Source of the DNA: a virus
DNA: 64,000 bases
Reading direction: 5' to 3' (one strand)
Virus record (IMG/VR): IMGVR_UViG_3300042882_001508
The position numbers and the translations under genes are program-made. This document shows positions 3,496 to 63,082 of the stretch, piece after piece. Positions within the stretch are counted from its first letter, which is position 1. The number at the start of each line of letters is the position of its first letter. The notes beneath the pieces were generated by a model, which was not told where the DNA came from, did no database searches, and saw nothing but the letters and a program-made list of their open reading frames with translations.

Positions 3496-3781
3496 TTCTT
3501 GGAAATTTTCTTTTTTTCTTTTCCATTATAAAGTCTAAGAAGCTTCAAGGAATCTTTATAATGCTTTTCCAACCTATCCAATTCTTCGATAGGAGTGTTT
3601 GTTTCACAAGCCGAATTATATTGTTCTTCAGCTTCTTGTATTATCTTCTTTATTGTTTTGAGAAGTTTCATATCCTATAAATATTGTCAATTCCTTCCTT
3701 TATTTAACAAGTTAAGAAATTATATTTTGAAGTGTATAAAAACATCGGAACGGGTTATTTATAAGGTAAGAGTAATTTTAA

Positions 3782-7657: not shown

Positions 7658-7873
7658 ATGGCACTTACAATAACCATATCATCAATAACTGGCACGTCAC
7701 CTTACAATGTATATCTCTGTGAGGGAGATGGAACTGGATGTTTTTATATAAATCAGATTTCATCCACACCCTACACATTTGACATACCAGCACCCTATGA
7801 TACATCAACATCATATATGGTAAAAATAGTAGATGCTGTAGGTTGTATTATAACTTCCACTCAATCATTATGA
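7658..7873 (+). CDS. Small protein (71 aa) homologous to the N-terminal module of the next gene
   Basis: ITISSITGTSPYNVYLCEGDGTGCFYINQISSTPYTFDIPAPYD aligns with VTITSVTANTPVNIYYCDSLSASCVFVSSVATFPFVFDVPAPYD of the downstream protein. Its start codon abuts the upstream stop (TAAATG). Confidence 0.5.
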   Translation: MALTITISSITGTSPYNVYLCEGDGTGCFYINQISSTPYTFDIPAPYDTSTSYMVKIVDAVGCIITSTQSL

Positions 7874-14554: not shown

Positions 14555-14585
14555 TTTGTGAATTACAAAACATATCTTATCTTTG
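14555..14585 (+). promoter_or_regulatory. Bacteroidetes sigma-A-type promoter (-33 TTTG, 19 nt spacer, -7 TATCTTTG)
   Basis: TTTG at 14555..14558, a 19 nt spacer, TATCTTTG at 14578..14585. The ATG at 14590 implies a near-leaderless transcript. Confidence 0.5.
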
Positions 14586-39625: not shown

Positions 39626-42313
39626 ATGGGTGAAAACATTTTTATAAGACCGAGTAATAGTATTTCAAGAACAGTTGATAGAATCCCTTTTATTGATTTT
39701 ATTAACGAGGCTTCTGATGCACCACTTAGAATGAGGATTTATGACCAACTCCCAAATGGTGCTTTTAAACAAATTATCAATTTTTCCAGTAGTACAACTC
39801 CAAATGTACTGACCATAAACTCATCTGCCCAAAAATTAGAAATCTATTCCGTAAATGTTATAAATAACTTAACTATTGGTTCAACTCAAGTTATTAATGC
39901 AACAGCGGATTGGATAGGACCAACAACAGGAATAGTCGGTACACAAGGAGCAACGGGAAACAAAGGAGCTCAAGGTACTCAAGGAGCTCAAGGTAATACA
40001 GGTGCTCAAGGTTCAGTTGGTGCAAACGGCGCACAAGGTGGACAGGGAGCACAAGGTAGCATTGGACCACAAGGTTCACAAGGAACTCAAGGAGCTCAGG
40101 GTAATACTGGTGCTCAGGGCAACGTAGGACCTCAAGGAGCTCAAGGTACCAAAGGACCTTTCGGAGATACAGGTGCACAGGGAGCCGTTGGACCACAAGG
40201 TGCACAAGGACCAACTGGAGCTCAAGGAAATACAGGAGCTCAAGGACACACTGGAGCACAGGGTGCGGTTGGACCTGTTGGTGCACAAGGAAGTACTGGT
40301 GCTCAGGGAAATGTTGGTCCACAAGGTGCCACAGGTCCTACAGGAGCTCAAGGAAACACAGGTGCTCAAGGAAACACAGGAGCCCAGGGTGCCACGGGTC
40401 TTACAGGAGCTCAAGGAAACACAGGTGCTCAAGGAAACACAGGAGCCCAGGGTGCCACGGGTCCTACAGGAGCTCAAGGAAATACAGGTGCTCAAGGACT
40501 TACTGGAGCACAGGGAGCAACAGGTCCAACTGGTGCTCAAGGTCCAACCGGAGCTCAGGGTAATACTGGTGCACAAGGAGCCATAGGTACAACAGGACCA
40601 CAAGGGGATACAGGTGCACAAGGGGCCGTGGGTCCACAAGGAGCAACAGGAGATATCGGTGCGCAAGGAGCCACAGGAGCACAGGGTAATTTGGGACCAC
40701 AAGGGGCTCAGGGAATTCAAGGTACTCAGGGAAAAGTTGGTGCTCAAGGAGCGGTTGGACCACAAGGTGCAACAGGACCAACAGGACCACAAGGTGCACA
40801 AGGTGGAACCGGACATCCGGGTGCGCAAGGAGCCATAGGTCCAACAGGTCCACAAGGTGCGCAAGGAGGTACAGGACATCCTGGTGCTCAAGGTGCGTTG
40901 GGTCCAACAGGTCCACAAGGTGCACAAGGAGGGACAGGACATCCTGGTGCTCAAGGTGCTATCGGACCCGCCGGACCTACAGGATTTCAAGGAGCTACAG
41001 GACATCCTGGTGCTCAAGGTGCCACCGGACCAACAGGACCAACAGGTGCACAAGGTGCTACAGGACATCCGGGAGCTCAAGGTGCAAAAGGTTCTATTGG
41101 ACCACAGGGTGCTGGAGGTGCGACTGGAGCTCTTGGTCCAGCAGGTAACACAGGTCCAATTGGACCAACTGGTCCTCAAGGTGCAACTGGACCCATCGGG
41201 GCTACTGGTAACACAGGACCAGGGGGACCTACAGGACCTCAAGGTGCACCGGGAGCCACAGGAGCTGGTGGTAACACTGGTCCTCAAGGACCAACCGGTC
41301 CACAAGGAGCACCAGGTACCAAAGGTGCGAACGGAGCTACGGGTCCCCAAGGCCCTACAGGTCCACAAGGAGCTACAGGAGCAACGGGTGCTACTGGTGC
41401 AACTGGTCCTACTGGGCCAACTGGACCGACAGGACCGCAAGGTGCTCAAGGGGCAGCAGGAGCTAAAGGACCACAAGGTCCAACAGGAGCACAAGGTGCA
41501 ACTGGTACAGCCGGTCCCCTTGGACCACAGGGTGGACAAGGTGCACAAGGTCCTACAGGACCTCAGGGTCCTGCTGGCGGAACTGGACCTACTGGTCCTA
41601 CAGGTGCTCAAGGTGCTCAGGGAGCTACGGGTGTGACTGGTCCTACGGGACCAACAGGTCCAACAGGTGCAACGGGCTCTCAGGGAGCTCAAGGTGCAAC
41701 GGGACCTGGAAGTGTAACATGTTATTCAGCTTACATCATAGCAAGAGGTGGAAGAGGTGGTAGCTGTGCGAATGTTTGTTCTACAACTTTTACTGTAGGT
41801 CCAGTCTACACGCAAAACGCAATTTATACACCATCATCGAATAAATACTTTAGTAACACAAACTGTCAAAATTCTACTTGTGATTGGGGTGGCTTATACT
41901 CTCACGAAAATTTTAATTCTGATTGCTACACATTGAATGCGACCTGTGGTAATGGTACCTTCGATTCTGTTTGCGCCTATTCAGATGTCAATCTCAAACA
42001 AAGTATAGAGACTTTAGAAGGGGTCATGGAAAAAATCTTGGAAATAGAAACAGTTGAGTATGATTGGAATGAAAACATTGGTAAAGAAAAATATGACATA
42101 TTTGAAAAAAATAAAAAACTTCACCAAATAGGTCTAATTGCCCAAAACGTAAGGTTACATTTCCCACAGGTAGTGAAAATGGGCTCTGACGGATATTATT
42201 TTATTGATTATACAAAATTAAATGCTGTAATAGTAGAGGGAATTAAAGAACAACAATTATTTATAGAAGATATTGATAATAAACTTGAAGAATTAGAAAA
42301 AAGATTTAGCTGA
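39626..42313 (+). CDS. Collagen-like tail-fibre protein with a C-terminal peptidase-S74 intramolecular-chaperone domain
   Basis: About 590 residues of uninterrupted Gly-X-Y ([10 protein letters not shown]...). A Cys-rich ~90 aa domain comes next. From 41981 the protein reads [14 protein letters not shown]...IGLIAQNV...YTKL, the S74 autoproteolytic chaperone signature (S-D-x-x-L-K). Confidence 0.8.
40793..40985 (+). repeat. Tandem 63 nt coding repeat (about 3 copies) encoding [21 protein letters not shown]
   Basis: Three units with minor substitutions inside the first collagen-like gene. Confidence 0.7.
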
Positions 42314-44772
42314 TGCCGAATGAACTGAAGATATTTCCACAGGGTAATGCTTACGATAGTAGACCTTGGTTTTATTGGGATGATAATTCCAATCAGGTGG
42401 CGTTTTTTGTTACAGCTAGAACTTTAAATTTTTCAGCGGGAACATTTACTCAAGGTTTGATGATTGGTCCTCAAGGAGTAAGAACTTCAGGACTAACAAT
42501 TAATAACTCGGGTTTATATATTGGGGTAAATCAGATGATTAATGCATCGGGGGTATGGACGGGACCCACGGCAGGAATAGCTGGTGCTCAAGGAGCGCAA
42601 GGTGCAACAGGAGCAACAGGAAAACAAGGTGCACAAGGTACTCAAGGGGCAAACACAGGTGCTCAAGGTGCAACAGGGGCTCAAGGAGCAACAGGTGCCA
42701 AAGGAACAGCAAGCGCTGTTTCAGGACCGACAGGGGACACAGGTGCACAAGGTACACAGGGTTCCCAAGGAGCTCAGGGAGCAACTCAGGGTGCCCAAGG
42801 TGCTGTTGGATTTCAAGGTGCTCAAGGAGCTCAAGGAGACCAAGGTGCCACAGTCGGAGCTCAAGGCAAACAAGGGGCTCAAGGCGCTCAGGGTGCTCAG
42901 GGAGCCCAAGGAGCTAAACAAGGTTCTCAAGGTGCAACAGGAAATACAGGTGCTCAAGGTTCACAAGGGGCGCAAGGAGCAACCACAGGTGCCCAAGGTA
43001 ACACAGGGGCTCAGGGGGTTCAAGGTTCTCAAGGTGCACAAGGTGCGAACACGGGTGCACAAGGTAACACAGGTGCTCAAGGTGCTCAAGGCTCTCAGGG
43101 TGCACAAGGAGCAAACACAGGTGCTCAAGGAAATACAGGTGCTCAAGGTGCTCAAGGAAACATAGGTGCTCAAGGAAGTCCTATTGGTGCACAAGGAAAT
43201 ACAGGTGCACAAGGTAAGCAAGGTGCTCAAGGAGCTCAAGGCACACCGACAGGTGCACAAGGTGCAACAGGAAAGCAGGGTGCCCAAGGTTCACAAGGTG
43301 CTCAAAGTGGGGTTCAGGGTTTACAAGGTGCCCAAGGTGCTCAAGGAGCAGTCGGGAGTCAAGGTGCTCAAGGAGGAACTACAGGTGCACAAGGAGACCT
43401 TGGAGTTTTTGGTGCACAAGGTTCACAAGGTGCTCAAGGGGGAACAACGGGAGCGCAAGGTGCTACAGGACCTACAGGTGCTCAAGGTGCTCAAGGAACT
43501 CAGGGTGCGAACCAAGGTGCCCAAGGGGCTACAGGACCTACAGGTGCTCAAGGTGCTCAAGGAACTCAGGGTGCGAACCAAGGTGCTCAAGGGGCTACAG
43601 GACCGACAGGACCCACAGGAGCTCAAGGTTCTCAGGGTGCAAGCCAAGGTGCTCAAGGTGCCTTAGGTGCTCAGGGTAATCAGGGTGCTCAGGGTTCTCA
43701 AGGTGCAAACCAAGGTGCACAGGGGGCAACTGGTCCAACAGGACCAACGGGAGCACAAGGTTCTCAGGGTGCGAATACAGGAGCTCAAGGAGCTACAGGA
43801 CCAACAGGAGCTCAAGGAGCACAAGGTTCTCAGGGTGCAAGCCAAGGTGCACAGGGAGCAACGGGACCAACAGGTAACACGGGTGCACAAGGTGCTGGAC
43901 CTGGTCCGCAAGGTGCACAGGGAGCAACGGGACCAACAGGTAATACGGGTGCACAAGGTGCTGGACCTGGTCCGCAAGGTGCCCAAGGGGCAACGGGACC
44001 AACAGGTAACACGGGTGCACAAGGTGCTGGGCCTGGTCCGCAAGGTGCACAGGGAGCAACGGGACCAACAGGTAACACAGGAGCTCAAGGCGCGGGACCC
44101 GGTCCACAAGGCGCTCAAGGTGCTCCAGGTGGTACAGGACCACAAGGAGCTACTGGTGCTCAGGGTACTCAGGGGTCAGGACCTGGTCCTATAGGACCGC
44201 AAGGAGCACAAGGTGCTCAAGGTGCTGCAAGTGGAACTGCGGGTGCACCAGGACCAACAGGACCTACAGGTCAACCAGGACCGACAGGATTAGCGGGTTC
44301 TACAGGACCAACTGGTCCACAAGGACCTACGGGAGCTCAAGGGGCTCAAGGTGGTGGAGGTTCAACAGGTCCTACAGGTCCACAGGGACCAACAGGTGGT
44401 CAGGGAGCTCAAGGTGCTCAAGGTCCATCTTCTGATATCAGATTGAAGGATAATATTATTCCGTTAAGAGAACCTGAGAAAAAAATTAAAACAATTGAAA
44501 GTGTGTCATTTGAGTGGGATACAGAACACAGGAAAATCAAAGAACATCCCGCAATAGTTTTCAAAGAAGCTTTCACAGGTAATACCTTTGGTTTCATCGC
44601 TCAAGAAGTGGAAAAGATTATACCTGAGGTAGTAGATACCGATGACGAGGGTTATAAAAGTATGCATTACGGACCTCTTGTTAGTTTGGGACTTGCGAAT
44701 CTCAAAATAAATCAAAAACGTATAGACTCTATTTATGAGAGGATAAATAAGTTGACTGAAATAATGAAGTAA
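42313..44772 (+). CDS. Collagen-like tail-fibre protein with regularly interrupted Gly-X-Y and a C-terminal S74 chaperone domain
   Basis: The Gly repeats carry frequent single-residue insertions ([21 protein letters not shown]). The S74 domain starts at 44431 (SDIRLKDNI...GFIAQEV...HYGPL). Confidence 0.8.
43846..44109 (+). repeat. Tandem 66 nt coding repeat (4 copies) encoding [22 protein letters not shown]
   Basis: Four near-identical 66 nt units. 22 aa per unit shifts the Gly register by one per repeat. Confidence 0.8.
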
Positions 44773-44773
44773 G

Positions 44774-47272
44774 ATGGCATCACCAGGAACATGTAGAATA
44801 TATAAAGTGGTTGGTGGAACCGGTGGAGGTTCATGGAGTGGACAACTCTGTGCATCTGCTACCGCGGTGAGTAGTAATGTTAACCAAGGAGTAACTCTTT
44901 ATACCCCTTGTATTAAAATAAGCTCTACATCATTTACAAACGTGACGACTACCGCTGTCGATTGTGATGGTACAGGAACAGGTGAAAATATAATAGTGGT
45001 ACCATCTCTATCATTAATGCAACTTGTAAGTAGTGCTGATACTTTCGTGAATTGGGTTTTGGAAAGTGGAGTTCTTAAATTTATACCATACAATGCATCT
45101 GAAGGAACATCCAGTCTAAGTATCCATACAACTGGTAATGTTTTGAGGTCCGATTTTGGAGTTTTCTTGGATACATCATTGAGCAATAATGCTCTAAGCC
45201 CATTAATTAATTCTACAGGGTGGTTAGGAAACAAACTGGCTCAGGGTGCACAAGGTGCACAAGGGGCTCAAGGAGACCAAGGTGCTCAGGGAAATGTTGG
45301 AGGTCAAGGTGCACAGGGAGGCCAAGGTTCTCAAGGAGCTCAAGGTTCTCAAGGGGCGGTAGGTGCTCAAGGAGTACAAGGAGCACAGGGAGCACAAGGT
45401 GCGGTTGGTGGACAAGGTTCCCAAGGAGGGACAGGTGCACAAGGAGCTCAAGGTGTGCAGGGAATAACCGGTGTTCAAGGTGCACAGGGTGGACAAGGTG
45501 CGCAGGGAGTACAAGGTGCCCAAGGGGCTCAAGGTGATATTGGTCAACCTGGAAGTCAGGGAGCACAAGGAGCCCAAGGAGGACAAGGGGCCCAAGGAGG
45601 ACAAGGTTCTCAAGGTGGTCAAGGTGCTCAAGGTGGTCAAGGTTCACAGGGTCTTACAGGTGGTCAAGGTTCACAAGGTGGTCAAGGTTCACAAGGTGGA
45701 CAAGGTGCCCAAGGTTCCAAAGGTGGACAAGGTTCACAAGGTGGTCAGGGTTCACAAGGACCCGTAGGTGCTCAAGGTTCTCAAGGAGGACAAGGTGCTC
45801 AAGGAGGACAAGGTGCTCAAGGAGGACAAGGTGCTCAAGGGGTACAAGGAGCTCAGGGTTCTCAGGGAGGTCAAGGAGCACAAGGTGCCCAAGGTGGTCA
45901 AGGTGCTCAAGGTGGTCAAGGTGCTCAAGGGGCAAAAGGAGTACAAGGTTCTCAAGGTGCTCAGGGTTCTAAAGGTGGACAAGGTGCACAAGGTGGACAA
46001 GGAACACAGGGTGCTCAAGGTGGACAAGGTGCTCAAGGTGGACAAGGTGCTCAAGGGGGTCAAGGTGCTCAAGGTGCTCAAGGTACCCAAGGTCTAACGG
46101 GAGCACAGGGTCCAGCTGGTGGTCAAGGTGCTCAAGGTGCTCAAGGACCTCAAGGTTCAACAGGTGCACAAGGACCTACAGGAGGACAAGGTGCCCAAGG
46201 TGCTCAAGGACCTCAAGGTTCAACAGGTGCTCAAGGTCCCACAGGAGGACAAGGAGCTCAAGGTGCTAAAGGGCCTCTTGGACCTACAGGTGCCCAAGGA
46301 CCTGCTGGAGGTCAAGGAGCACAAGGTGCACAGGGTCCACAAGGCGGACAGGGTGCACAAGGACCAACGGGAGGACAAGGTGCCCAAGGATTAATAGGTG
46401 GGACGGGTGGTCAAGGTGCGCAAGGACCAGCTGGTGGACAAGGTGCTCAAGGGGCTCAGGGTCCACAAGGTGGACAAGGTTCACAAGGACCAGCTGGTGG
46501 ACAAGGTGCTCAAGGGGCTCAGGGTCCACAAGGTGGACAAGGTTCACAAGGACCAGCTGGTGGACAAGGTGCTCAAGGTGCGCAGGGTCCACAAGGTGGA
46601 CAAGGTTCACAAGGACCAGCTGGTGGACAAGGTGCTCAAGGGGCTCAAGGTGGTGGAGGAGGTACTGGTGGTCAAGGAGCACAAGGTGCTACAGGACCAG
46701 CCGGACCAACAGGTCTTACAGGTTTCCAAGGAGCTCAAGGGCCAGGGGGTGGTCAAGGAGCACAAGGCCCAACAGGAGCAACTGGTGCGCAAGGTGCCCA
46801 AGGTGCTAAAGGTCCAATTGGACCTACAGGTTCACCTGGGGGAACAGGAGCTCAAGGTGCACAAGGGCCAGTAGGACCTACAGGTCCCCAAGGTCCAGCA
46901 GGTGGAACGGGACCTCAAGGTGCTCAGGGTGCTCAGGGTGCTACAGGACCCTCGGACTATAGGGTAAAGAATAACATTCAGCGGATAGAGAATGTTTTAC
47001 CTAAAGTTTTGAAGTTGAGAGGTGTTTCTTTTGAATGGAAAAATGTTGATACCAAAACACATGGTCCTGTATCAAGTGACATCGGATTTATTGCCCAAGA
47101 AATTCAACAAATTTTCCCTGAACTTGTATTCAAAAAGAATCACAAGGACTCTCATTATATGGTGAAATACTCTGAAGTTATTGCTTTATGTTTGGAGGCA
47201 ATAAAAGAACAATCCCTATTGTTAGATGAAAAAGAGGAAAGACTTGAAAAACTTGAAATGAAAGTTAAGTAA
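44774..47272 (+). CDS. Collagen-like tail-fibre protein with a C-terminal S74 chaperone domain
   Basis: About 570 residues of uninterrupted Gly-X-Y that are GGQ/GAQ-rich. The S74 domain starts at 46952 (SDYRVKNNI...GFIAQEI). A bidirectional terminator follows the gene. Confidence 0.8.
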   Translation: MASPGTCRIYKVVGGTGGGSWSGQLCASATAVSSNVNQGVTLYTPCIKISSTSFTNVTTTAVDCDGTGTGENIIVVPSLSLMQLVSSADTFVNWVLESGVLKFIPYNASEGTSSLSIHTTGNVLRSDFGVFLDTSLSNNALSPLINSTGWLGNKLAQGAQGAQGAQGDQGAQGNVGGQGAQGGQGSQGAQGSQGAVGAQGVQGAQGAQGAVGGQGSQGGTGAQGAQGVQGITGVQGAQGGQGAQGVQGAQGAQGDIGQPGSQGAQGAQGGQGAQGGQGSQGGQGAQGGQGSQGLTGGQGSQGGQGSQGGQGAQGSKGGQGSQGGQGSQGPVGAQGSQGGQGAQGGQGAQGGQGAQGVQGAQGSQGGQGAQGAQGGQGAQGGQGAQGAKGVQGSQGAQGSKGGQGAQGGQGTQGAQGGQGAQGGQGAQGGQGAQGAQGTQGLTGAQGPAGGQGAQGAQGPQGSTGAQGPTGGQGAQGAQGPQGSTGAQGPTGGQGAQGAKGPLGPTGAQGPAGGQGAQGAQGPQGGQGAQGPTGGQGAQGLIGGTGGQGAQGPAGGQGAQGAQGPQGGQGSQGPAGGQGAQGAQGPQGGQGSQGPAGGQGAQGAQGPQGGQGSQGPAGGQGAQGAQGGGGGTGGQGAQGATGPAGPTGLTGFQGAQGPGGGQGAQGPTGATGAQGAQGAKGPIGPTGSPGGTGAQGAQGPVGPTGPQGPAGGTGPQGAQGAQGATGPSDYRVKNNIQRIENVLPKVLKLRGVSFEWKNVDTKTHGPVSSDIGFIAQEIQQIFPELVFKKNHKDSHYMVKYSEVIALCLEAIKEQSLLLDEKEERLEKLEMKVK
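46424..46650 (+). repeat. Tandem 63 nt coding repeat (about 3.5 copies) encoding [21 protein letters not shown]
   Basis: Near-identical units inside the third collagen-like gene. Confidence 0.75.
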
Positions 47273-50166: not shown

Positions 50167-50197
50167 TTTGTTGAGTTTATTTAGATAAATATATTTG
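50167..50197 (+). promoter_or_regulatory. Bacteroidetes sigma-A-type promoter (-33 TTTG, 19 nt spacer, -7 TATATTTG)
   Basis: TTTG at 50167..50170, a 19 nt spacer, TATATTTG at 50190..50197, upstream of the gene starting at 50242. Confidence 0.5.
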
Positions 50198-54076: not shown

Positions 54077-54180
54077 GAAATTGGAGTGGATATTCGATTA
54101 TTATTTCGTTTGGATGTTATATAACGGAAATAAAACACACAAGTACATAGAGTACATGGAGAAAAAGTGGGGAAATAAAA

Positions 54181-54411
54181 ATGATTGACAATACAGAATG
54201 GGTCAATGGACCCTCTCACTACGGAGGAAAAGAAAACCCATACGAAGTAATTAAAGTTTGTGAAGCTTGGGAGCTCGATAAAGACGCTTATTTATTCAAC
54301 GTGGTCAAATATGTTGCTCGAGCAGGAAAGAAAGACGTCTCTAAAGAAATTGAAGACCTTAAGAAAGCGGCTTTTTATTTAGATAGAAAAATTAAAAATT
54401 TAGAAAAATGA
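54181..54411 (+). CDS. DUF3310-like phage protein
   Basis: SHYGGKENPYEVIKVCEAW...FNVVKYVARAGKK...DLKKAAFYL fits the DUF3310 pattern (HYGG...IE...F..GNAIKY..RAG.K..EDL.KA..Y) that is often found beside phage nucleotide kinases. Confidence 0.45.
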   Translation: MIDNTEWVNGPSHYGGKENPYEVIKVCEAWELDKDAYLFNVVKYVARAGKKDVSKEIEDLKKAAFYLDRKIKNLEK

Positions 54412-54860
54412 TTATTTGGTTAACAGGTCAACCCGGTGCGGGTAAAACAACAATTTGTAAAAAAATTTTACTTAGAGACGCTAGTATTTTCCACATCGAT
54501 GGAGATGACCTCAGAGATTTATTTGAGAACAAAGACTACTCCGAACAAGGTAGAAGAAAAAACATTGAGTTAGCCCAACAAATTGCTCAGTATCTCACTA
54601 ACAAGGGTGAAGATGTATTAGTATCTTTGGTTTCCCCCTACAAAGACCAAAGAAATAAATTCAAAGAAAAGATGGGGGATAAATTGGTAGAGGTTTATGT
54701 TCATACTTCTGAAAAAAGAGGGAGAGAAGATTTCTTCGTAAAAGAATATGGACAACCCACCGAAAATTACCTTGACATTGATACAACAAATGAAAGTGTT
54801 GAGGAGTCAGCTCAAAAAGTATTAGAATATGCGAAGAATAAACCAAACACAACCAAATAA
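54408..54860 (+). CDS. P-loop kinase, adenylyl-sulfate (APS) kinase-like
   Basis: Walker A GQPGAGKTT, then IDGDDLR and SLVSPYKDQR...LVEVYV. These line up with APS kinase LDGDNVR / FISPYRADR / FIEVFV. Confidence 0.5.
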   Translation: MIIWLTGQPGAGKTTICKKILLRDASIFHIDGDDLRDLFENKDYSEQGRRKNIELAQQIAQYLTNKGEDVLVSLVSPYKDQRNKFKEKMGDKLVEVYVHTSEKRGREDFFVKEYGQPTENYLDIDTTNESVEESAQKVLEYAKNKPNTTK

Positions 54861-54896
54861 AAATGTTCTTTTTGGTTAATCCTCATATTTATTAAT

Positions 54897-55439
54897 ATGA
54901 AAGCAATTGATTTAAAAGGACAAAAATTTGGTAAACTGTTGGTTAAAGAGTTTGCGGGACATAAAAACAACTTAAGACAATGGTTATGTGTCTGTGAGTG
55001 TGGAAATGAAAAAATTGTTAGAGGGGGACATTTAACTAAAGGGTTTACAAAAACCTGCGGTTGTGAAGCTCACCCAACACAATTTAACCATAAATCTTGG
55101 AAAGGTTATGGAGAGATTCCCTTAGATTTTTTTACTACCATTAAGAAAAACGCAGAACGTAGAAACATTGAATTTTATATTACAATTGAATATCTTTGGG
55201 AAATCTTCGTAAAACAAAATAAAAAATGTGCATTATCTGGTAGAGACTTAAAATTTGGGAGAATTGTAAAAGATAGAAAGGGTAAAAATGTTTCTGTTGA
55301 TAGAATTGATTCTTCTAAAGGTTATGTAAACGGAAATATCCAATGGATAGATAAACAAATAAACATTATGAAGAATAATTTGGATGAAAATGAATTCTTA
55401 CAGCTTTGTAATGATATTGTAAACTATAAAAAAATATGA
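54897..55439 (+). CDS. HNH-family (homing) endonuclease-like protein
   Basis: N-terminal Cys cluster CVCECGNE...CGC. The C-terminus (SGRDLKFGR...VSVDRIDSSKGYVNGNIQWIDKQINIMKNN) matches the HNH_3-type pattern. Confidence 0.5.
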   Translation: MKAIDLKGQKFGKLLVKEFAGHKNNLRQWLCVCECGNEKIVRGGHLTKGFTKTCGCEAHPTQFNHKSWKGYGEIPLDFFTTIKKNAERRNIEFYITIEYLWEIFVKQNKKCALSGRDLKFGRIVKDRKGKNVSVDRIDSSKGYVNGNIQWIDKQINIMKNNLDENEFLQLCNDIVNYKKI

Positions 55440-55837
55440 AAAAAATTCACGTTGAGGGAGACCCAAAATTAAAAAACACAGGAGGAAAACAGTATTCAAT
55501 GGTAGTCGGACGATTTCAACCTTTTCACGATGGACACAAATGGTTGGTTAATCAATGTTTAGAGGATGGTAAAAATGTTCTGATTTGTATTAGAGACATC
55601 CAACCAGATGAAAAAAATCCATTTTCACCTGAAGACGTTCAAAGAAATATCATGAACGAACTTTGGAAACTTATAGGAGAAGAAAAAGTTAAGGTCATGA
55701 TTATACCCGATATTGAGTCAGTGAATTTCGGAAGAGGTGTTGGATATGATATCATTGAGCATGTACCACCTCAAGAAGTTCATGATATTTCTGCAACAAA
55801 AATCCGTGAACAAATGAGACAGGAGGGAAAGTTATGA
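55436..55837 (+). CDS. Nicotinamide/nicotinate mononucleotide adenylyltransferase-like nucleotidyltransferase (archaeal NadM type)
   Basis: The HxGH motif GRFQPFHDGH is identical in form to the archaeal/NadM NMNAT GRFQPFHxGH. The ~130 aa size suits a minimal NMNAT. Confidence 0.5.
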   Translation: MKKIHVEGDPKLKNTGGKQYSMVVGRFQPFHDGHKWLVNQCLEDGKNVLICIRDIQPDEKNPFSPEDVQRNIMNELWKLIGEEKVKVMIIPDIESVNFGRGVGYDIIEHVPPQEVHDISATKIREQMRQEGKL

Positions 55838-56067
55838 TAGATGTCAAAGTTAGATGGAATACACAATGTAAAGACGGTCACAACTTTTGGAGAATTCTAA
55901 TTGATAGTGAAGAGAGAATTTGTTCTAATATAATTTTTGAAGTTCCCGTTCATACGACCCGAGACATTGTTTGGGATTCTTTAAGGAATATGGAAGTCGA
56001 AAAACACCATGTTAGTTGTCAGGCCAATGATGTTATTTGGAAAGGGGATGTTGTGATTGTAAAATAG
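55834..56067 (+). CDS. Hypothetical small protein
   Basis: ORF. Confidence 0.3.
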   Translation: MIDVKVRWNTQCKDGHNFWRILIDSEERICSNIIFEVPVHTTRDIVWDSLRNMEVEKHHVSCQANDVIWKGDVVIVK

Positions 56068-56134
56068 AAAATATTTTCAATTTACTGGACTTAGTGGAAA
56101 AAAATCATTAAAATTGAATTATTAAACTGTTATA

Positions 56135-56998
56135 ATGGAAAATTTTTTAGGTAATATAATAAATGGTGACTGTATAGTAGAGATGGCTAAAATGCCTGAA
56201 AACTCAATCGATTTAATTGTCACTTCCCCACCATACGGAGTCGGGATTGAATATGACTCATTCGATGATGATATGAACATAGAAGACTACAAAGAGTTTT
56301 CGAAGAAATGGCTCACTGAGGCTTATAGACTTCTGAAGGCGGATGGTAGAATTGCTCTCAATGTTCCTTATGAAATCAACCGACAGGATAAAGGAGGAAG
56401 AGTTTTTATTGCCTCTGAACTTTGGCAGATTATGCAAAGAATTGGTTACAAATTTTATGGTATTGTGGATTTGGATGAAGATTCTCCACACAGAAGTAAG
56501 ACCACGGCTTGGGGTTCATGGATGTCTCCTTCTGCACCTTACATCTACAATCCGAAAGAGTGTGTTATCTTGGCTTACAAATCTAAACATATTAAGATTG
56601 TTAAAGGTGAACCCGAGTGGGTTGGCGTGATTGATGAGATTGAACAAGAGGATGGAACAAAAAAGAAAAAAACTCTTTATACTGAAGAACAGAAGAAAGA
56701 ATTTATGGATTTGGTTTATGGACAGTGGACGTATTTTGCAGACACAAAACAAATGACCAAAGCAACCTTTTCTTTGGATATCCCAATGAAAGCTATGAAG
56801 ATACTCACATATAAAAATGACGTCGTCTTGGACCCTTTCTGTGGGTCTGGTACAACTCCAGTTGCTGCAGTGATATCAGGAAGAAATTGGGTGGGTATTG
56901 AACTCAGTCCGAACTATTGTGAAATAGCCCGTCAAAGAGTTAAACAATTCGTGGATAAAAAGAAACAAACTAAATTAGATTTCGAAGAAGGGGTTTAA
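56135..56998 (+). CDS. DNA methyltransferase, beta class N6-adenine/N4-cytosine (N6_N4_Mtase family)
   Basis: The catalytic IVTSPPY precedes the AdoMet motif DPFCGSGTT, which is the beta-class order. A terminator follows the gene. Confidence 0.75.
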   Translation: MENFLGNIINGDCIVEMAKMPENSIDLIVTSPPYGVGIEYDSFDDDMNIEDYKEFSKKWLTEAYRLLKADGRIALNVPYEINRQDKGGRVFIASELWQIMQRIGYKFYGIVDLDEDSPHRSKTTAWGSWMSPSAPYIYNPKECVILAYKSKHIKIVKGEPEWVGVIDEIEQEDGTKKKKTLYTEEQKKEFMDLVYGQWTYFADTKQMTKATFSLDIPMKAMKILTYKNDVVLDPFCGSGTTPVAAVISGRNWVGIELSPNYCEIARQRVKQFVDKKKQTKLDFEEGV

Positions 56999-57015
56999 AA
57001 ACCCCTTTTTTTATT
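56987..57015 (+). terminator. Intrinsic terminator after the DNA methyltransferase gene
   Basis: aaggggttt-aa-aaacccctt followed by tttttttatttttt. Confidence 0.6.
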
Positions 57016-57043
57016 TTTTGGATATTTATAGGAAATTATTCCT

Positions 57044-57415
57044 ATGAAAGAAGAACTCATAAAAAAACTCGTTCAAATTCAACTTCAATTTAAATTTTTA
57101 CATTGGCAAACTTTTGGAGATGCTAAACATAGACTTTATGGAGAAATCTATGATAAGTTGGGAGACTTTATTGATGAGTTCACTGAAACAATGATGGGAA
57201 AATACGGAAGACCAGAGTTTGACTCTGAATTTGGAATTATGTTTCAAGATATTTCGGCATTGAGTATGCAGAATTTTATAGATGGAATTACTGAATTTTT
57301 TGTTGGGATGTCAGACCAACTCGACTCAAGATATGATACAGACTTACTCAACATTAGAGATGAGATGTTGGGTCTCATAAATAAATCTAAGTACTTATTA
57401 ACACTCAAATACTAA
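57044..57415 (+). CDS. Hypothetical protein
   Basis: ORF. Confidence 0.35.
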   Translation: MKEELIKKLVQIQLQFKFLHWQTFGDAKHRLYGEIYDKLGDFIDEFTETMMGKYGRPEFDSEFGIMFQDISALSMQNFIDGITEFFVGMSDQLDSRYDTDLLNIRDEMLGLINKSKYLLTLKY

Positions 57416-57711
57416 TGGCACAGAAAATTGTAAGACTAAGCGAAGGTGACTTAATTAATCTTGTAAAAAGGGTTATCACCGAACAAAAAAAATTCGAACT
57501 ATTCATGAATCCTGGTCAAACAGCTGAAGCAGAATTGATTGGAGACATATTGACTATTTTTTCTCAGATGGGGAAAGACCAAATCTTTAAAGTAAAAACA
57601 TCTTTACCGAAAGGAAAATTTATGTTTGAATATTCGAAAGATGGAAAATATTACGGATACGATAAGAGAGGAAAAAAACATGAAATCCTTTTGATAGAAA
57701 AAAGAAAATGA
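57415..57711 (+). CDS. Hypothetical protein
   Basis: ORF. Confidence 0.35.
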   Translation: MAQKIVRLSEGDLINLVKRVITEQKKFELFMNPGQTAEAELIGDILTIFSQMGKDQIFKVKTSLPKGKFMFEYSKDGKYYGYDKRGKKHEILLIEKRK

Positions 57712-59132
57712 AAAAACTATTAAAAGAGTCTGGTTTAAGAGATATTTCGGCTTTGAGGAAAAGATACCCTAAAGCCGAAATTTATTTTCACCTTGACCTT
57801 GATGGTGTGACCACCGCAATTGCAATGAAAAAATACCTTGAGGACAATGGAATCAAGGTGGTTGGAGCACACACCATTCAATATGGGGACAAAGAATTTG
57901 CTGTTAAAAAGTTGGATGCTGAAGGTGATACAATGCCGGTACTTGTAGATTTCGCTCATGGTAAACCCATGTTCGTTATTCATACTGACCACCACGACAG
58001 ACAGGTAGGAGCTGAACCCGAGGCCTCTAAATCATTCAGACAAGCCCGTTCCAACGTAGAGACAATATCTCAAATAGTTTCTCCTAAAGAAATATTTCCA
58101 ACCGCAGATATCCTCCTAATAAGCACCGTTGACTCGGCTAACTTTTTGAAACATGAAATTACACCCGAGGACGTTGTGAATTATATTTTCAGATTGGATA
58201 AAGATAAGACCCTTCAGAAAAATAAAATGTTACTTGGGTTGGTTATCAACAAACTGATTTTAGCTTTCAAAAACCGAAAAGGTTTTATGGAGAGTTTGGT
58301 TATGGATTCAGAACCTTCCCTTATGTCCATTTTCAATAACATTAAGAAATGGATGAAAATGACAAGTGCTGAGGACTTTGCTACCCTTCAACAAAGGTCC
58401 GATGATTACTTGGAACAAATGAAAAAATATCCGAAGGTAAGAGTTGAAGACGGAATAATTTTTCAATACGGTGCAGGAAATATGAAGTCTGGTTCATATG
58501 ATAGATACACTCCTTTTAGAGTGAATCCAAATGCAGACTTTCTTATTCTAATGTGGCCGATGGGACTTTTACAAGTCTCTTGTAACCCTTTTAAAAAAGA
58601 CAGAAAGTTGAAAGGAGTTAATTTGGGAGAGATGGCTCAGGACGTTCTTAAACCTTTTGAAAGCCAACTCAAATCAAGAACAATCCCTCTTTCGACAATC
58701 AAATGGTTGAGTGAAATAAGTACAAAACCCGGTGATGTTGGATTTACATTCAAAGATTTCAATGCCCTTTTCGGTGGTAAAATTGCTTTCATTGATGGAG
58801 GTAACGAAATTTTAGATAGAATCAAACCGATGATGGACAAACCTTTTTCCGAACTCAAGGAAGAAGAAAAACAACTTTTGGATAAAATTGGAATTAACAT
58901 GTGGGATTTTATTCAATCAAATTCAGGGGGACACAAATGTATTACGAATATTTCAGGTCTAAATTTTCTTGGAAGAAAGACAAGACCATCAGAGGACCCA
59001 TACAGATATGACCCAGATAAGCCAGATGTTCCATATATCAAATTCATGAGACAACTTGGAACAAAATTTTTCAATATATTGAAAGATAAAATTCAAGAGG
59101 AACAACAAAAAGAAAAAGAAGTATCGAATTAA
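57708..59132 (+). CDS. DHH-DHHA1 family phosphoesterase (NrnA/RecJ-core-like)
   Basis: DHH motifs YFHLDLDGVTTA (DxD) and VIHTDHHD (DHH). The C-terminus has the DHHA1 motif SNSGGHK (GGGH-like). Confidence 0.55.
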   Translation: MKKLLKESGLRDISALRKRYPKAEIYFHLDLDGVTTAIAMKKYLEDNGIKVVGAHTIQYGDKEFAVKKLDAEGDTMPVLVDFAHGKPMFVIHTDHHDRQVGAEPEASKSFRQARSNVETISQIVSPKEIFPTADILLISTVDSANFLKHEITPEDVVNYIFRLDKDKTLQKNKMLLGLVINKLILAFKNRKGFMESLVMDSEPSLMSIFNNIKKWMKMTSAEDFATLQQRSDDYLEQMKKYPKVRVEDGIIFQYGAGNMKSGSYDRYTPFRVNPNADFLILMWPMGLLQVSCNPFKKDRKLKGVNLGEMAQDVLKPFESQLKSRTIPLSTIKWLSEISTKPGDVGFTFKDFNALFGGKIAFIDGGNEILDRIKPMMDKPFSELKEEEKQLLDKIGINMWDFIQSNSGGHKCITNISGLNFLGRKTRPSEDPYRYDPDKPDVPYIKFMRQLGTKFFNILKDKIQEEQQKEKEVSN

Positions 59133-59500
59133 AAATGATACTCAACCCAATCTCCGGGTTCTATTCCAACAGTTTCACAATAACCACCGGGTAACTCCAA
59201 AACAATATTTCCATTTCCACAATATGTTGGACATGGTGCTTCATCGCAAGGGGGACAATCGGAGTGAATATTAACAATTACATTATTTTTTATTATGATG
59301 ATGTCCAAGGGTATAATACAATTTTTCATCCAAAAACATTGTTTGTTACCACCCATCAAAAATAATAGGGCTTCGAAGTCTTTGTTGAAAGTTTTACCCA
59401 TCATCCCAATTGCTTGAGATTTTTTATCAGTTAAAACTTTTGTTTTGAAAATATTTTTGTTAATTTTGACAAACACAATAATAAATACAAATGGAATCAA
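59129..59500 (-). CDS. Hypothetical Cys-rich protein on the minus strand
   Basis: Minus-strand ORF containing HSDCPPCDEAPCPTYCGNG. Confidence 0.35.
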   Translation of the reverse strand: MIPFVFIIVFVKINKNIFKTKVLTDKKSQAIGMMGKTFNKDFEALLFLMGGNKQCFWMKNCIIPLDIIIIKNNVIVNIHSDCPPCDEAPCPTYCGNGNIVLELPGGYCETVGIEPGDWVEYHF

Positions 59501-59910
59501 AAAGGTACGCTGGCGTTTTAGTTAAATGTGGAGACGAAGTTCTCCTCTGCAAAAGAAATAATTTGGGTTCTTTTCCAGGTATGTGGTCAATACCAGGAGG
59601 AAAAATGGAAGAAGGAGAAAACTCTCAAGATAGTGCAAAGCGAGAGTTTGTAGAAGAAACTGCCGTGGACATTTCAGATAGAAACATAAAGTTCATCGGA
59701 CTTCTCCCAAGACACACAAGAGACGGAAAAAAAGTAAAAGGGATGATGTATGTTTACCAACTTGACACTGACCAACCAATTGAACCTGATTTTGCGGCTG
59801 CAAAGGACGGTGAAGAACACACCGAATGGAAATATTTCAAATTAGATGAAATTGATTTCAGACAGTGTGGCGAATTCATGTATAAACTTATTGAAATCGT
59901 ATTACAATGA
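59491..59910 (+). CDS. Nudix hydrolase
   Basis: Nudix box GGKMEEGENSQDSAKREFVEETAV (Gx5Ex7REUxEExGU). Confidence 0.7.
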   Translation: MESKRYAGVLVKCGDEVLLCKRNNLGSFPGMWSIPGGKMEEGENSQDSAKREFVEETAVDISDRNIKFIGLLPRHTRDGKKVKGMMYVYQLDTDQPIEPDFAAAKDGEEHTEWKYFKLDEIDFRQCGEFMYKLIEIVLQ

Positions 59911-60144
59911 AACTTTTATTGATATCCTTAACAATTATAATTGTCATTGGAGTTTTCGGTTGGTTCAAAATAAATCAACAAATCAAAAAAAATATTGATA
60001 GGTTAGGATGATTTTCCGAAACTTGGAGATATTTATATGTTCTTATCCGAAAGGATGAACATCCCCAACACGAGAACTGAAGAAACTGAGAAGTTTCGAT
60101 AAAATCGGTCCTCACGAGATGAATGAAGCAGTAATCTCGAAAAA

Positions 60145-60198
60145 AAGTCCCACAAAATTTGGAAGTATAATTTTCTCACCTTATTTTTGTGGGACTTT
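60145..60198. other. Long hairpin (12-13 bp stem, ~26 nt loop) at the start of the ORF-free region
   Basis: agtcccacaaaa ... ttttgtgggact are perfect inverted repeats. Confidence 0.5.
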
Positions 60199-60199
60199 A

Positions 60200-61370
60200 T
60201 TATCAAAGTAGTTCTTTAACATACTTCTACTCAAGGTTCAACCAGAGCATGACTTGGATGGTGACACGGGGACTTGGGTAGTTTTATAATACGGCGGGCG
60301 GAGGGCAAGGTGTCCTGTTGGTCTCATAAGCCAATTTAGCTCAGTTCGATTCTGAGGCGTCGCAACAAAAAAAGTTTTATAAAAATTTGACGAATTGAAA
60401 AGTTCTTCTTAATTTTGTAAGACAATTGAGGGAAAGGGGTTGTAAAGTTCCTTACCGAAGTCGGGGGTTGTAAAAATTTCCACTCTCCTTCAATACTTGA
60501 TAGTTCTTTGTTTTAAGATATTGGCCGCCTATGGTCATTAAATAAACTACGAAAGTAGTATAAAGTGGGACACCAGGTTTTAGTGTTCTGCGGTATCAAA
60601 GGGGTACTCGAGTAGGCAATCAGGATATGTTCTGACCTTTAGTACTGAGGGTAACACTGTAGGGAAAGTGGTTGGAATACGGGGCGATACGGGTCGTCTC
60701 GTTGAGGTCGGAAGACTAATAAGAATAATCTGAGGAATCTATGTGAGAAATTATGGCTTCCACCATAGTCATCACGTAATTCAATATGAAAGTTGACTTA
60801 AAACCGAAAGGTAAGTTGATGTACAGGTGGTGCTGTTATTAACCTTGAAACGTCTCTACCAAGAGCGTATCACTGAAGTTGACTTGAAGTATGGAGGTCG
60901 GGAGACTTCAGAGAGTAGTTTAGTATCGTGTCGTTCAAAAGGCGACACGGCTGGTGACAGACCGCTACTTTCCACATCCGTAAACCAACCCTTAATTGTT
61001 AATTCTGGTTTAACAACTTATAATTAAAATCAAGGAAAAGTGTCTGTCAGTCGTTGGAAACAGGTGACTACTTAGTCTTGAGATGTTCATGACCGCGTTG
61101 GGTCCCAAGCCCTTCACGATTTTCACGAAAGTTCTCTATTCCCGCAAGGAAGAATTGGGGTGGCAACCTCGAAGAGTGATGAGTAAGGAGAGAGTATTCA
61201 ACGATTTAAGGATTGGTTAATCTAATTGACCGTCACTGAGAGTTACTGTTCAAAAGACAGTGGAAACGGAGGGAATAAATAATCCTTCTAAAGATTCTCA
61301 ACAAAGCTTGTATTCTCAGAGTTTTTTGCCAAACCCTGACCGTTTCTACGGTTGGGGTTTTTTGTTTTCT
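60200..61370. ncRNA. Candidate large structured non-coding RNA or RNA-element cluster. Strand and class undetermined
   Basis: A ~1.4 kb stretch (59911..61394) has no credible ORF. It is visibly G+C- and purine-richer than flanking genes. A hand count of a few 60 nt lines gives mid-40s %GC versus roughly one third nearby. It contains a T-arm-like hairpin (ctcag-ttcgatt-ctgag at 60339..60355) and a hairpin plus T-run near 61346..61368. Confidence 0.3.
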
Positions 61371-61394
61371 GAAGTATTTATAAGAAAAAATACG

Positions 61395-62444
61395 ATGTAC
61401 ATAAAAAAACTTTCGCCTCAGGAGGCTTTGGAAACAATCAAATTGAGAATGAATTATGATTCATCAAAAACTTTGAACGAAAATAAGTTGATAGTCCTCG
61501 AACAAAAAGCCAATCTCACAACAAACCAACAAGCAGCATTAACTCAAGGTTTTGGTCCTGTGACAGCCAAAGCAGCTGACGATTTAGCTAAACAGGGAAA
61601 GTTGAAAACAAACACATTAAAATCTGTTTTTGGGGGCACTCAAACTCCTACCTCCGCGGTTGATACAAGTACCGCTAACAAACAAACCTCTGACACAGGA
61701 GTTGGAAAAGCTATACAACAAGGTGTTCAAGCGGCAAACCTCAAAATAGATGTATCTTGTATTGGATTCAACGGTGAAGAATATAAAGAAATCACAACAG
61801 CTTTAGTAAGCTCTGACGGCATTGGAAAACCGGTTCACGTTTGGAGATTTTGGCCTGACGGAAAAGCAATATATGTCGAAAGTGGGGATAAGTATAAGTA
61901 TACATACAAATGTAGTAAAACTAAACCTGGTGTTGTTGAAATAACAGATGTTGATTCTTCAGAAGTGGATGAATACAAATTATTTGATAAGAAAAATTCA
62001 CAAACAGTTGCCCCTAAAAAAGCTGTTCCAATTCCATCAGAATTGAAAGACATCGAGGGTGTAAAAAAATTCCAAGATTGGTTAGATAAAAACCATGAGG
62101 GTTGGCATGACAAATACAAAGTTTTGAATAGTAGTGTTCCTAAAGGTTATGGTAAATTTGGTCCGAGAACCAATAAATGGTGGAAACTTGAGGGTCCTGA
62201 ATTTATAGGTTCAGTTAAACCAACGACACAAGCTCCTGATACCACTAAGGCACAAACACAGACCTCCCCAAAAATTGATACAACACCACCAAAAGCTGAA
62301 ATACCTAAACCCGTAAAAGGCTTTCAAAAATTTGCTCAAACTCAATTCGGTGCAAATGGACCTCAAACCACTGCTCAATCGGCAACTGGTGGACCTGCTA
62401 CCCAAGAAACAAAAAGAGTTGCAAATCAAGATACTGAATTCTAA
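61395..62444 (+). CDS. Hypothetical protein. Start revised downstream of the track ORF start
   Basis: The track ORF begins at 61260, but a hairpin plus T-run (ccgtttctacgg-ttggggttttttg) lies inside its first 45 codons. The in-frame MYIKKLSPQ at 61395 follows that element. Confidence 0.4.
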   Translation: MYIKKLSPQEALETIKLRMNYDSSKTLNENKLIVLEQKANLTTNQQAALTQGFGPVTAKAADDLAKQGKLKTNTLKSVFGGTQTPTSAVDTSTANKQTSDTGVGKAIQQGVQAANLKIDVSCIGFNGEEYKEITTALVSSDGIGKPVHVWRFWPDGKAIYVESGDKYKYTYKCSKTKPGVVEITDVDSSEVDEYKLFDKKNSQTVAPKKAVPIPSELKDIEGVKKFQDWLDKNHEGWHDKYKVLNSSVPKGYGKFGPRTNKWWKLEGPEFIGSVKPTTQAPDTTKAQTQTSPKIDTTPPKAEIPKPVKGFQKFAQTQFGANGPQTTAQSATGGPATQETKRVANQDTEF

Positions 62445-62473: not shown

Positions 62474-62504
62474 TTTGTAGTCTCACAAAATTAACCTATC
62501 TTTG
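62474..62504 (+). promoter_or_regulatory. Bacteroidetes sigma-A-type promoter (-33 TTTG, 19 nt spacer, -7 TATCTTTG)
   Basis: TTTG at 62474..62477, a 19 nt spacer, TATCTTTG at 62497..62504, upstream of the ATG at 62524. Confidence 0.5.
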
Positions 62505-62523: not shown

Positions 62524-63066
62524 ATGTTTGATAAACTTATTGACGTAATAGTAACTTTCATTAATGACATTCTACCTTGGAAAATCGTTGACCAGTGGGA
62601 ACAAGGAGTTCATCTTAGAACTGGAAAGTTTCTTAGAGTAGTTATTCCCGGTTTGAATTGGAAAATTCCCTTTTTCGACCAAATTTTAACTACACCTGTC
62701 ATTACTCAGACAGTAAACCTAAAACCTCAAACTGTAACATCTTTGGACGAGAGAAGTGTCGTTCTCTCAAGCATTGTTCGTTATCACATCGATGACGTTG
62801 AAAAATTTTTGTTGGGTGTAATGCACGCAAACGATGTTCTAATCGATACAACACAGGGAATTATCAGAGACGTAGTAGAGAGCTCAAACTGGAGCGACCT
62901 CTACGAACTTGGTAACACTGTTACACCTGCTGTTAATAATGAAGTGGAGAAGTGGGGTATTGTGGTGGAACAAATAAGTTTTCCTGACTTAGGGGAAATT
63001 GTGACTTATAGGATTATGGGAGACTCCTATAAAAATCCATCGGGAATTTTGCCATTAGTAGAGTAA
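62524..63066 (+). CDS. Hypothetical protein
   Basis: ORF preceded by a perfect TTTG-N19-TATCTTTG promoter. Confidence 0.45.
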   Translation: MFDKLIDVIVTFINDILPWKIVDQWEQGVHLRTGKFLRVVIPGLNWKIPFFDQILTTPVITQTVNLKPQTVTSLDERSVVLSSIVRYHIDDVEKFLLGVMHANDVLIDTTQGIIRDVVESSNWSDLYELGNTVTPAVNNEVEKWGIVVEQISFPDLGEIVTYRIMGDSYKNPSGILPLVE

Positions 63067-63082
63067 TCTGTATATTTGAACC

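Follow-up and report, generated by a model that had tools for sequence, protein, structure and literature searches.

Evidence for a full-length env-38-type GOLLD RNA in the stable-RNA locus of an uncultured phage

GOLLD RNAs are among the largest and most elaborate non-coding RNAs of bacteria and phages. We analyzed a 64,000-nucleotide (nt) stretch of DNA from IMG/VR virus record IMGVR_UViG_3300042882_001508 (the window), concentrating on positions 59,911 to 61,394, which a preliminary description had flagged as a candidate large structured RNA. We conclude with high confidence that an uncultured phage has a stable-RNA locus here and that the chief product of this locus is a GOLLD RNA of the env-38 subtype, full-length and encoded on the + strand at 60521..61322 (Table 1). 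The Rfam GOLLD model (RF02032) matched 60911..61322 on that strand with 317.9 bits (threshold 150; E = 3e-90), the match covering model positions 1-416 of 416 with the bracketed pseudoknot paired as well, and no other family reached its gathering threshold when the whole window was scanned against Rfam. This model describes the conserved 3' domain alone; the 5' domain was delimited here by homology. GOLLD had been named first among the candidates of the preliminary description, with an Rfam search as the proposed check, and the full-length Rfam match, the homology of the 5' half and covariation all bear that suggestion out. The RNA does not fill the entire ~1.4 kb, as had been supposed, and is ~800 nt long. 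Clearly, the locus is a well-preserved member of a known family and not a new RNA class.

The 5' half was traced by comparison with env-38 GOLLD, an RNA of 833 nt from marine metagenome scaffold JCVI_SCAF_1096627009515 that lies downstream of a Met-tRNA; residues 1-420 form its 5' region and residues 421-833 its 3' region (Kretsch et al. 2025, PMC12286853). GOLLD RNAs were recently shown to form RNA-only cages (PMC12286853; reviewed in PMC12990946), and the cryo-electron microscopy structure of env-38 (PDB 9MEE) is a 14-mer cage of D7 symmetry in which linker nt 497-538 are disordered and face the interior (PMC12286853). We recovered the env-38 construct sequence from the PDF supplement of that paper. 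Window positions 60522-61320 align with this approximate query sequence at ~66% identity over 857 columns, and the segment 60521..60910 aligns throughout with env-38 residues 1-420 (approximate numbering).

Relatives were collected by scanning IMG/VR with one 17-mer common to env-38 and the window, which yielded 109 loci (L001-L109). By nhmmer profile, 88 of these carry this GOLLD type, 70 of them as full-length copies of 790-838 nt, and Rfam GOLLD was confirmed in all four relatives checked (260-338 bits). Thirty-five non-redundant copies, <95% identical to each other, made up alignment A1. RNAalifold derived 204 consensus pairs from A1, with compensatory changes in 147, so that the alignment across related phages advised in the preliminary description did uncover covariation. 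Standard pairs fill 96.7% of cells, versus 78% with shuffled partners (none of 500 shuffles reached the observed value) and 34-44% when partners were slid by 1-3 columns. Most helices of the 5' domain covary in A1. The window RNA forms 195 of the 204 consensus pairs, including 104 of the 110 in the 5' domain. Both domains belong to GOLLD, with essentially every helix conserved along with three long-range helices.

The long-range helices emerged from a search of the family alignment for non-nested covarying stacks. They are paired in 98.7% of cells, compared with 27-41% for slid partners, and are perfectly complementary in the window. The contact between a 5'-domain loop and the start of the linker is predicted to be either a long-range helix or a kissing contact; the other two close the linker and form a pseudoknot within the 3' domain. 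Folds of individual copies placed a hairpin of 6-7 bp in the linker of most relatives, its sequence differing from copy to copy (UUGUUAA/UUAACAA, UUUUUAC/GUAAAAA, UUUGCA/UGCAAA), a recurrence that hints at a conserved structure within the cage. ARAGORN found no tRNA within any GOLLD copy, linker included. Guided by the description in PMC12286853 and not by residue numbering, we infer that the CGCAA loop corresponds to L21b, the loop behind bridge B9 between the env-38 half-cages, and that the GGCA loop corresponds to L21a and bridge B8. GCGA replaces GGCA at the latter position in L058 and L068; a GC-to-CG switch in L21a has been described for GOLLD (PMC12286853). Mapping of env-38 residue numbers such as 656-657 was abandoned because the recovered sequence ran to 816 nt instead of 833.

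Comparison with the closest relative addressed structure at short evolutionary range. L081 is a 5.6-kb contig of an uncultured virus in which gene order is as in window positions 54173-61363, with the upstream hairpin and the terminator shared. Its GOLLD is 93.4% identical to that of the window and its spacer 99% identical. Substitutions between the two RNAs touch 27 pairs, of which 23 stay canonical, 8 by double compensatory change. These structure-preserving changes indicate that selection currently acts on the structure of GOLLD, which is no relic.

The GOLLD gene is framed by a promoter-like site, a structured leader and an intrinsic terminator. Bacteroidetes promoters take the form of a -33 TTTG and a -7 TAnnTTTG separated by ~19-21 nt. 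The site preceding GOLLD follows this pattern and also fits a sigma-70-like TTGACG-17-TAATTT. Across the window, TTTG-N18-22-TAnnTTTG occurs 14 times (e.g. 14555-14585, 50167-50197, 59439-59468, 62474-62504 and 63048-63078) versus 4.0 +/- 2.0 expected (0 of 100 shuffles reached 14), and several matches directly precede open reading frame (ORF) starts. About 20 relatives have the pattern at the equivalent position before GOLLD. We infer from sequence that the site at 60386..60417 acts as the GOLLD promoter. The leader hairpin between promoter and core holds two copies of the direct repeat GGGGTTGTAAA, at 60436 and 60464; direct reading of the L081 and L020 sequences revealed an equivalent hairpin with compensatory differences in its outer stem. 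As a dispersed motif GGGGTTGTAAA was rejected, for there are two local copies and no others. At the 3' side, the preliminary description was right to report a terminal hairpin followed by a T-run: the hairpin occupies 61331..61360 (-19.2 kcal/mol, z = -4.66), T-rich sequence follows, and the stem covaries in L081, L020, L094 and L050. Weak Rfam matches to L10_leader and sar fall on this terminator hairpin and were dismissed, as were matches to MIR8562, MIR821 and TeloSII_ncR30, which fall on the terminator or on the hairpin at 60144 (the two microRNAs on the latter).

A block of sequence GTTCTTT(G/A) lies 17-90 nt 5' of the core in all 35 non-redundant relatives, with or without a Bacteroidetes-type promoter. 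In relatives the block is flanked on either side by variable inserted hairpins, whose loops are often UUCG or GAAA; it is probably transcribed. GTTCTTT is unlikely to be a promoter element, as no constant distance separates it from any -10/-7 box and its 6 matches in the window versus 4 expected represent no enrichment.

Table 1. Features of the GOLLD locus and its flanks, in window coordinates.
Feature	Position	Strand	Basis or remark
NUDIX hydrolase gene	59491..59910		5' neighbour of the gene-free stretch
Long hairpin, perfect 14-bp stem, 27-nt loop	60144-60157 with 60185-60198	+	z = -3.7; 0/200 shuffles fold as well
Second promoter-like site, Bacteroidetes type, in hairpin loop and 3' arm	60158..60189	+	Pattern match
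GTTCTTT block, first copy	60211..60217	+	76 nt before tRNA-like gene
Degenerate tRNA-like cloverleaf, anticodon CAU at 60325..60327	60293..60365	+	Minimum-energy fold
Promoter-like site for GOLLD, TTTG-N20-TAATTTTG	60386..60417	+	Bacteroidetes -33/-7 pattern
Leader hairpin between promoter and core	60425..60494	+	Folding
GTTCTTT block, second copy	60503..60509	+	18 nt before GOLLD core
GOLLD RNA, full length	60521..61322	+	802 nt
GOLLD 5' domain (cap domain in env-38 structure)	60521..60910	+	env-38 alignment; outside Rfam model
5'-domain loop UACGGGU with AUCCGUA at linker start	60688..60694 with 60976..60982	+	7 pairs, 4 compensatory, 96% paired
GOLLD 3' domain (conserved ring domain)	60911..61322	+	RF02032
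Linker-closing helix GACAGAC with GUCUGUC	60956..60962 with 61042..61048	+	7 pairs, 5 compensatory, 100% paired
A/U-rich variable linker, 59 nt	60983..61041	+	Alignment A1; counterpart of env-38 nt 497-538
Linker hairpin UUGUUAA with UUAACAA	60996-61002 with 61010-61016	+	Folding
3'-domain pseudoknot GGUGAC with GUCACU	61063..61068 with 61232..61237	+	6 pairs, 4 compensatory, 100% paired
CGCAA loop, conserved, self-complementary	61143..61147	+	Conserved in A1
GGCA loop, inner GC palindromic	61162..61165	+	GGCA in most A1 sequences
Intrinsic terminator, 13-bp stem then T-run	61331..61366	+	9 nt past GOLLD 3' end; terminator scan
Next long ORF 3' of the stretch	Probable start ATG 61395

Three other explanations of the region were weighed against a preserved GOLLD gene. 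Hardest to sustain, and given next to no credence, is a protein gene, whether frameshifted, intron-containing or small. The 66-aa ORF at 60827..61027 does exist and is retained in L081, the single relative to keep it, at 93% identity. In the 33 more distant relatives, however, the corresponding segment measures 193-215 nt with length differences that are not multiples of 3, stop codons interrupt many copies, and the longest stop-free run is 28-64 aa; moreover, substitutions track base pairs and not codons. The preliminary description had called the stretch ORF-free, and 59911..61259 (1349 nt), where no frame has an ORF reaching 80 aa, is indeed the longest such interval of the window. An equally remote prospect is that the region houses some other large RNA or DNA element, such as ROOL, HEARO, a group I/II intron, transfer-messenger RNA (tmRNA), RNase P or a replication origin, several of which had been put forward earlier. 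In keeping with this idea, the region lacks coding sequence and has hairpins as well as a small number of short repeats, but even at E up to 1 Rfam returned no match to any of these RNAs within 59800..61500, and a repeat search of the region revealed no iteron-like repeats or arrays of the kind that suggest an origin. Apart from promoter spacers, the stretch has no AT-rich unwinding region. GOLLD, by contrast, explains 802 nt with covariation.

The remaining explanation, a decayed GOLLD remnant that scores in Rfam and is no longer expressed or folded, is very improbable, if somewhat less so than these two. The adjacent tRNA-like gene is degenerate, which speaks for decay. Against it stand the integrity of all three long-range helices and of 195 of the 204 consensus pairs, the retention of 23 of the 27 pairs touched by substitutions relative to L081, 8 of them through double compensatory change, and a promoter-like site and terminator that are both intact and conserved. 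A preserved GOLLD gene thus accounts for the region better than any of the three.

The tRNA-like gene lies 155 nt upstream of GOLLD. The preliminary description could fold no complete tRNA here and proposed ARAGORN as a check; the program's single call across the window was tRNA-Met(CAT), at 60290..60366. A cloverleaf therefore does fold, yet the earlier doubt was partly justified, as the Rfam tRNA model (RF00005) gives 22.7 bits at 60298..60364, below the threshold of 29. The T-arm-like stem-loop reported previously is also real and is shifted by one base, to 60340..60356. No defect is seen in the D, anticodon and T arms of the cloverleaf, whose anticodon loop has 7 nt and whose T-loop, TTCGATT, is canonical. 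No register gives a perfect acceptor stem: each leaves an additional junction nucleotide, or else a bulged G together with a G1xA72 mismatch. CCA is not encoded. Bacterial initiator tRNAs combine a 1-72 mismatch with an anticodon stem that holds three G-C pairs in a row; the cloverleaf has the G1xA72 mismatch, but its anticodon stem, UUGGU/GCCAA, has two G-C pairs and not three.

A same-strand tRNA-Met(CAT) occurs near GOLLD (within ~500 nt) in 19-20 of the 35 non-redundant relatives, either 150-470 nt upstream or 12-45 nt downstream. Most of these tRNAs resemble initiators in having C1xA72 and an anticodon stem with GG(G)/CC(C). The window cloverleaf is nearest to the rarer L090/L061-type tRNAs (41.5 and 37 bits), and homologous tRNAs of relatives span 37-52 bits. 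At this site L081 (reverse-complement positions 3677-3979 versus window 60288-60366) has a 67-aa ORF and a canonical initiator-like tRNA-Met (52 bits) in place of the 77-nt tRNA-like gene. Such a clean difference despite 99% spacer identity indicates that a cassette was exchanged between near-identical phages. Most likely, the cloverleaf at 60293..60365 is a decaying tRNA gene in the slot that relatives fill with an initiator-like tRNA-Met. A sigma-70 scan site at 60261..60290 was rejected as a tRNA promoter, since its conservation in L081 does not extend across the breakpoint.

It is unlikely, though worth keeping in mind, that the cloverleaf is instead a working tRNA or tRNA mimic, co-transcribed and coupled with GOLLD as a processing handle or cargo. 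ARAGORN recognizes it, the cloverleaf is the minimum-energy fold, its D, anticodon and T arms are perfect, and tRNA(CAU) adjoins GOLLD on one side or the other in more than half of relatives; a promoter-like site and a GTTCTTT block precede the cloverleaf, as they do GOLLD. On the other hand, its Rfam score falls below threshold and well under the 37-41 bits of L090/L061, the acceptor stem is bulged, GOLLD possesses its own promoter-like site, and the different, canonical tRNA at this site in L081 shows this sequence to be dispensable. A related idea, to which we attach slightly less weight still, is that the GTTCTTT block and the recurrent tRNA(CAU) or tRNA-like neighbor together direct GOLLD maturation or assembly in a way not previously described: the precursor would be cleaved by tRNA-processing enzymes or by a phage factor, which would set the time of cage formation, and the cloverleaf would be kept as a processing handle. 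The decaying tRNA gene remains our preferred interpretation of the cloverleaf.

Several relatives display further elements around GOLLD. In L006, L008, L087 and L070, a T-arm-like hairpin, TTGGTTCGATTCCAA, with partly complementary flanks lies 20-60 nt 3' of GOLLD and elicits no ARAGORN call; a possible role is that of a 3' processing signal in the form of a tRNA-like minihelix. One clade (L045, L009, L027, L034, L019, L059 and others) has a conserved element of ~60 nt (...TGGTGGA...CCGTnCGGCCC...) between the GOLLD 3' end and the terminator, an element absent from the window. A phage tmRNA is located ~500 nt upstream of GOLLD in L058, L086 and L098 (ARAGORN tag peptides ending YAVAA), and L060 contains a tmRNA at 7779-8171 (Rfam 86.8 bits) along with an array of >25 tRNAs.

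Further upstream, the long hairpin that the preliminary description placed at the beginning of the structured region is real and has a perfect stem (60144..60198). It is not the start of the RNA, lying 320 nt upstream. The hairpin is nearly identical in L081 (97% for the upstream hairpin region), and 60140-60168 is a 72% direct repeat of 60367-60395, in the GOLLD promoter region. Identity to L081 across 60022-60287 is 82-97%, exceeding that of adjacent protein-coding genes. In the NUDIX 3' region, a hairpin with a GAAA loop at ~60045-60062 displays a compensatory change relative to L081 (ATCC/GGAT versus ACCC/GGGT). A hydrophobic ORF of 34 aa at 59907..60011 overlaps the NUDIX stop codon (ATGA). 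In L081 this position is taken by a small ORF that is likewise transmembrane-like; given this positional analogue, the 34-aa ORF is probably a real small membrane protein gene and the non-coding part probably begins near 60012.

Base composition agrees in part with the earlier account. Enrichment in G+C is genuine and modest, at 0.390 for the stretch versus 0.362 for the window, and reaches 0.420 in the GOLLD part (60521..61322), the 88th percentile among 802-nt segments. The claimed purine enrichment was not found (0.538 versus 0.546 for the window). What is raised in the stretch is G over C, with a GC skew of 0.16-0.18 versus 0.056 for the window.

The window is phage DNA, as evidenced by collagen-repeat tail fibres, SbcC, primase and methylases. 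Three consecutive ORFs at 39626-47272 (895, 819 and 832 aa) consist of collagen-like Gly-X-Y repeats and look like tail fibres; the first has a C-terminal Peptidase_S74 chaperone domain. These ORFs are the most G+C-rich DNA of the window and the source of many spurious overlapping ORFs. Megablast of 40000-64000 against INPHARED phages gave no match, and sensitive blastn of the region matched two huge uncultured phages, over no more than the final ~150 nt of GOLLD. Distant matches alone, at 23-28% identity, were obtained by tblastn with the SbcC-like protein, indicating that the phage has no cultured relative. The enriched Bacteroidetes-type promoters, together with an SprB repeat in ORF 9456-11654, suggest a Bacteroidota host, and on this sequence-based reasoning the host is probably a member of that phylum. 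The 17-mer used for the IMG/VR scan had 62 matches in GTDB representative genomes, none of them a GOLLD by nhmmer; these are chance matches and give no hint of a prophage host.

By homology with the env-38 structure, the transcript would form a cap domain from its 5' part and a ring domain from its 3' part, and copies of it would assemble without protein into a closed homo-oligomeric cage held together by kissing loops and A-minor contacts. This cage would be a 14-mer if the RNA behaves like env-38, and the A/U-rich linker, 60983..61041, is predicted to face its interior. Several points weigh against taking this picture over unchanged. Two peripheral hairpins of the 5' domain (A1 columns 84-100 and 323-343) are shorter in the window than in env-38, so stoichiometry could differ. 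Protomer number varies among GOLLD RNAs, with 12 for Streptococcus agalactiae and 14 for env-38 (PMC12990946). The comparison itself depends on a recovered env-38 text of 816 nt rather than 833, which renders identities and residue numbers approximate. Finally, we know of no GOLLD family member with an established biological function, and the functional part of this scheme is accordingly hypothetical.

A rise in expression during lytic growth is expected of a GOLLD RNA. We speculate that the window RNA is made in lytic growth, within a translation-related stable-RNA module comprising tRNAs and, in relatives, tmRNA, and that the cage might bind or enclose a translation component. Constant accompaniment of GOLLD by tRNAs, and by phage tmRNA in relatives, lends weak support to a role in such a module.

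This copy leaves the overall picture of GOLLD unchanged. It adds a well-delimited, full-length gene of the env-38 type from a probable Bacteroidota phage, complete with its own promoter-like site, leader and terminator, and the 35-sequence alignment documents a 5' domain outside the Rfam model along with three covarying long-range contacts. Leads on maturation and context are provided by the invariant leader motif and by two near-isogenic phages that differ through a swap of the tRNA cassette, GOLLD having stayed under structural selection. For annotation, a 1.4-kb gap is explained by a GOLLD locus.

Weinberg et al. 2009 reportedly placed GOLLD in Lactobacillales prophages, lake metagenomes, Mycobacterium tRNA arrays and Caulobacter phiCbK-like phages. 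With the RF02032 family the window RNA shares a phage setting beside tRNA genes and a whole-model match at twice the gathering score; its probable Bacteroidota host sets it apart. Its nearest counterpart is env-38, an RNA of the same subtype with the same two-domain layout, A/U-rich linker and conserved loop sequences. Both have a Met-type tRNA gene upstream, that of the window being degenerate. Some mycobacterial GOLLD RNAs carry a tRNA in the linker (PMC12990946), whereas the linker of the window RNA has none. ROOL (Rfam; PDB 9MDS), also large, phage-associated and located near tRNAs, likewise forms a cage of RNA alone; it is unrelated to the window RNA in sequence and fold and is likely a functional analogue of GOLLD. 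The S. agalactiae GOLLD (PDB 9L0R, a dodecamer; PMC12990946) belongs to the same family and has the same 3' ring architecture as the window RNA; it lacks P9, P11a-c and P21b, elements present in the env-38 type, with which the window RNA aligns.

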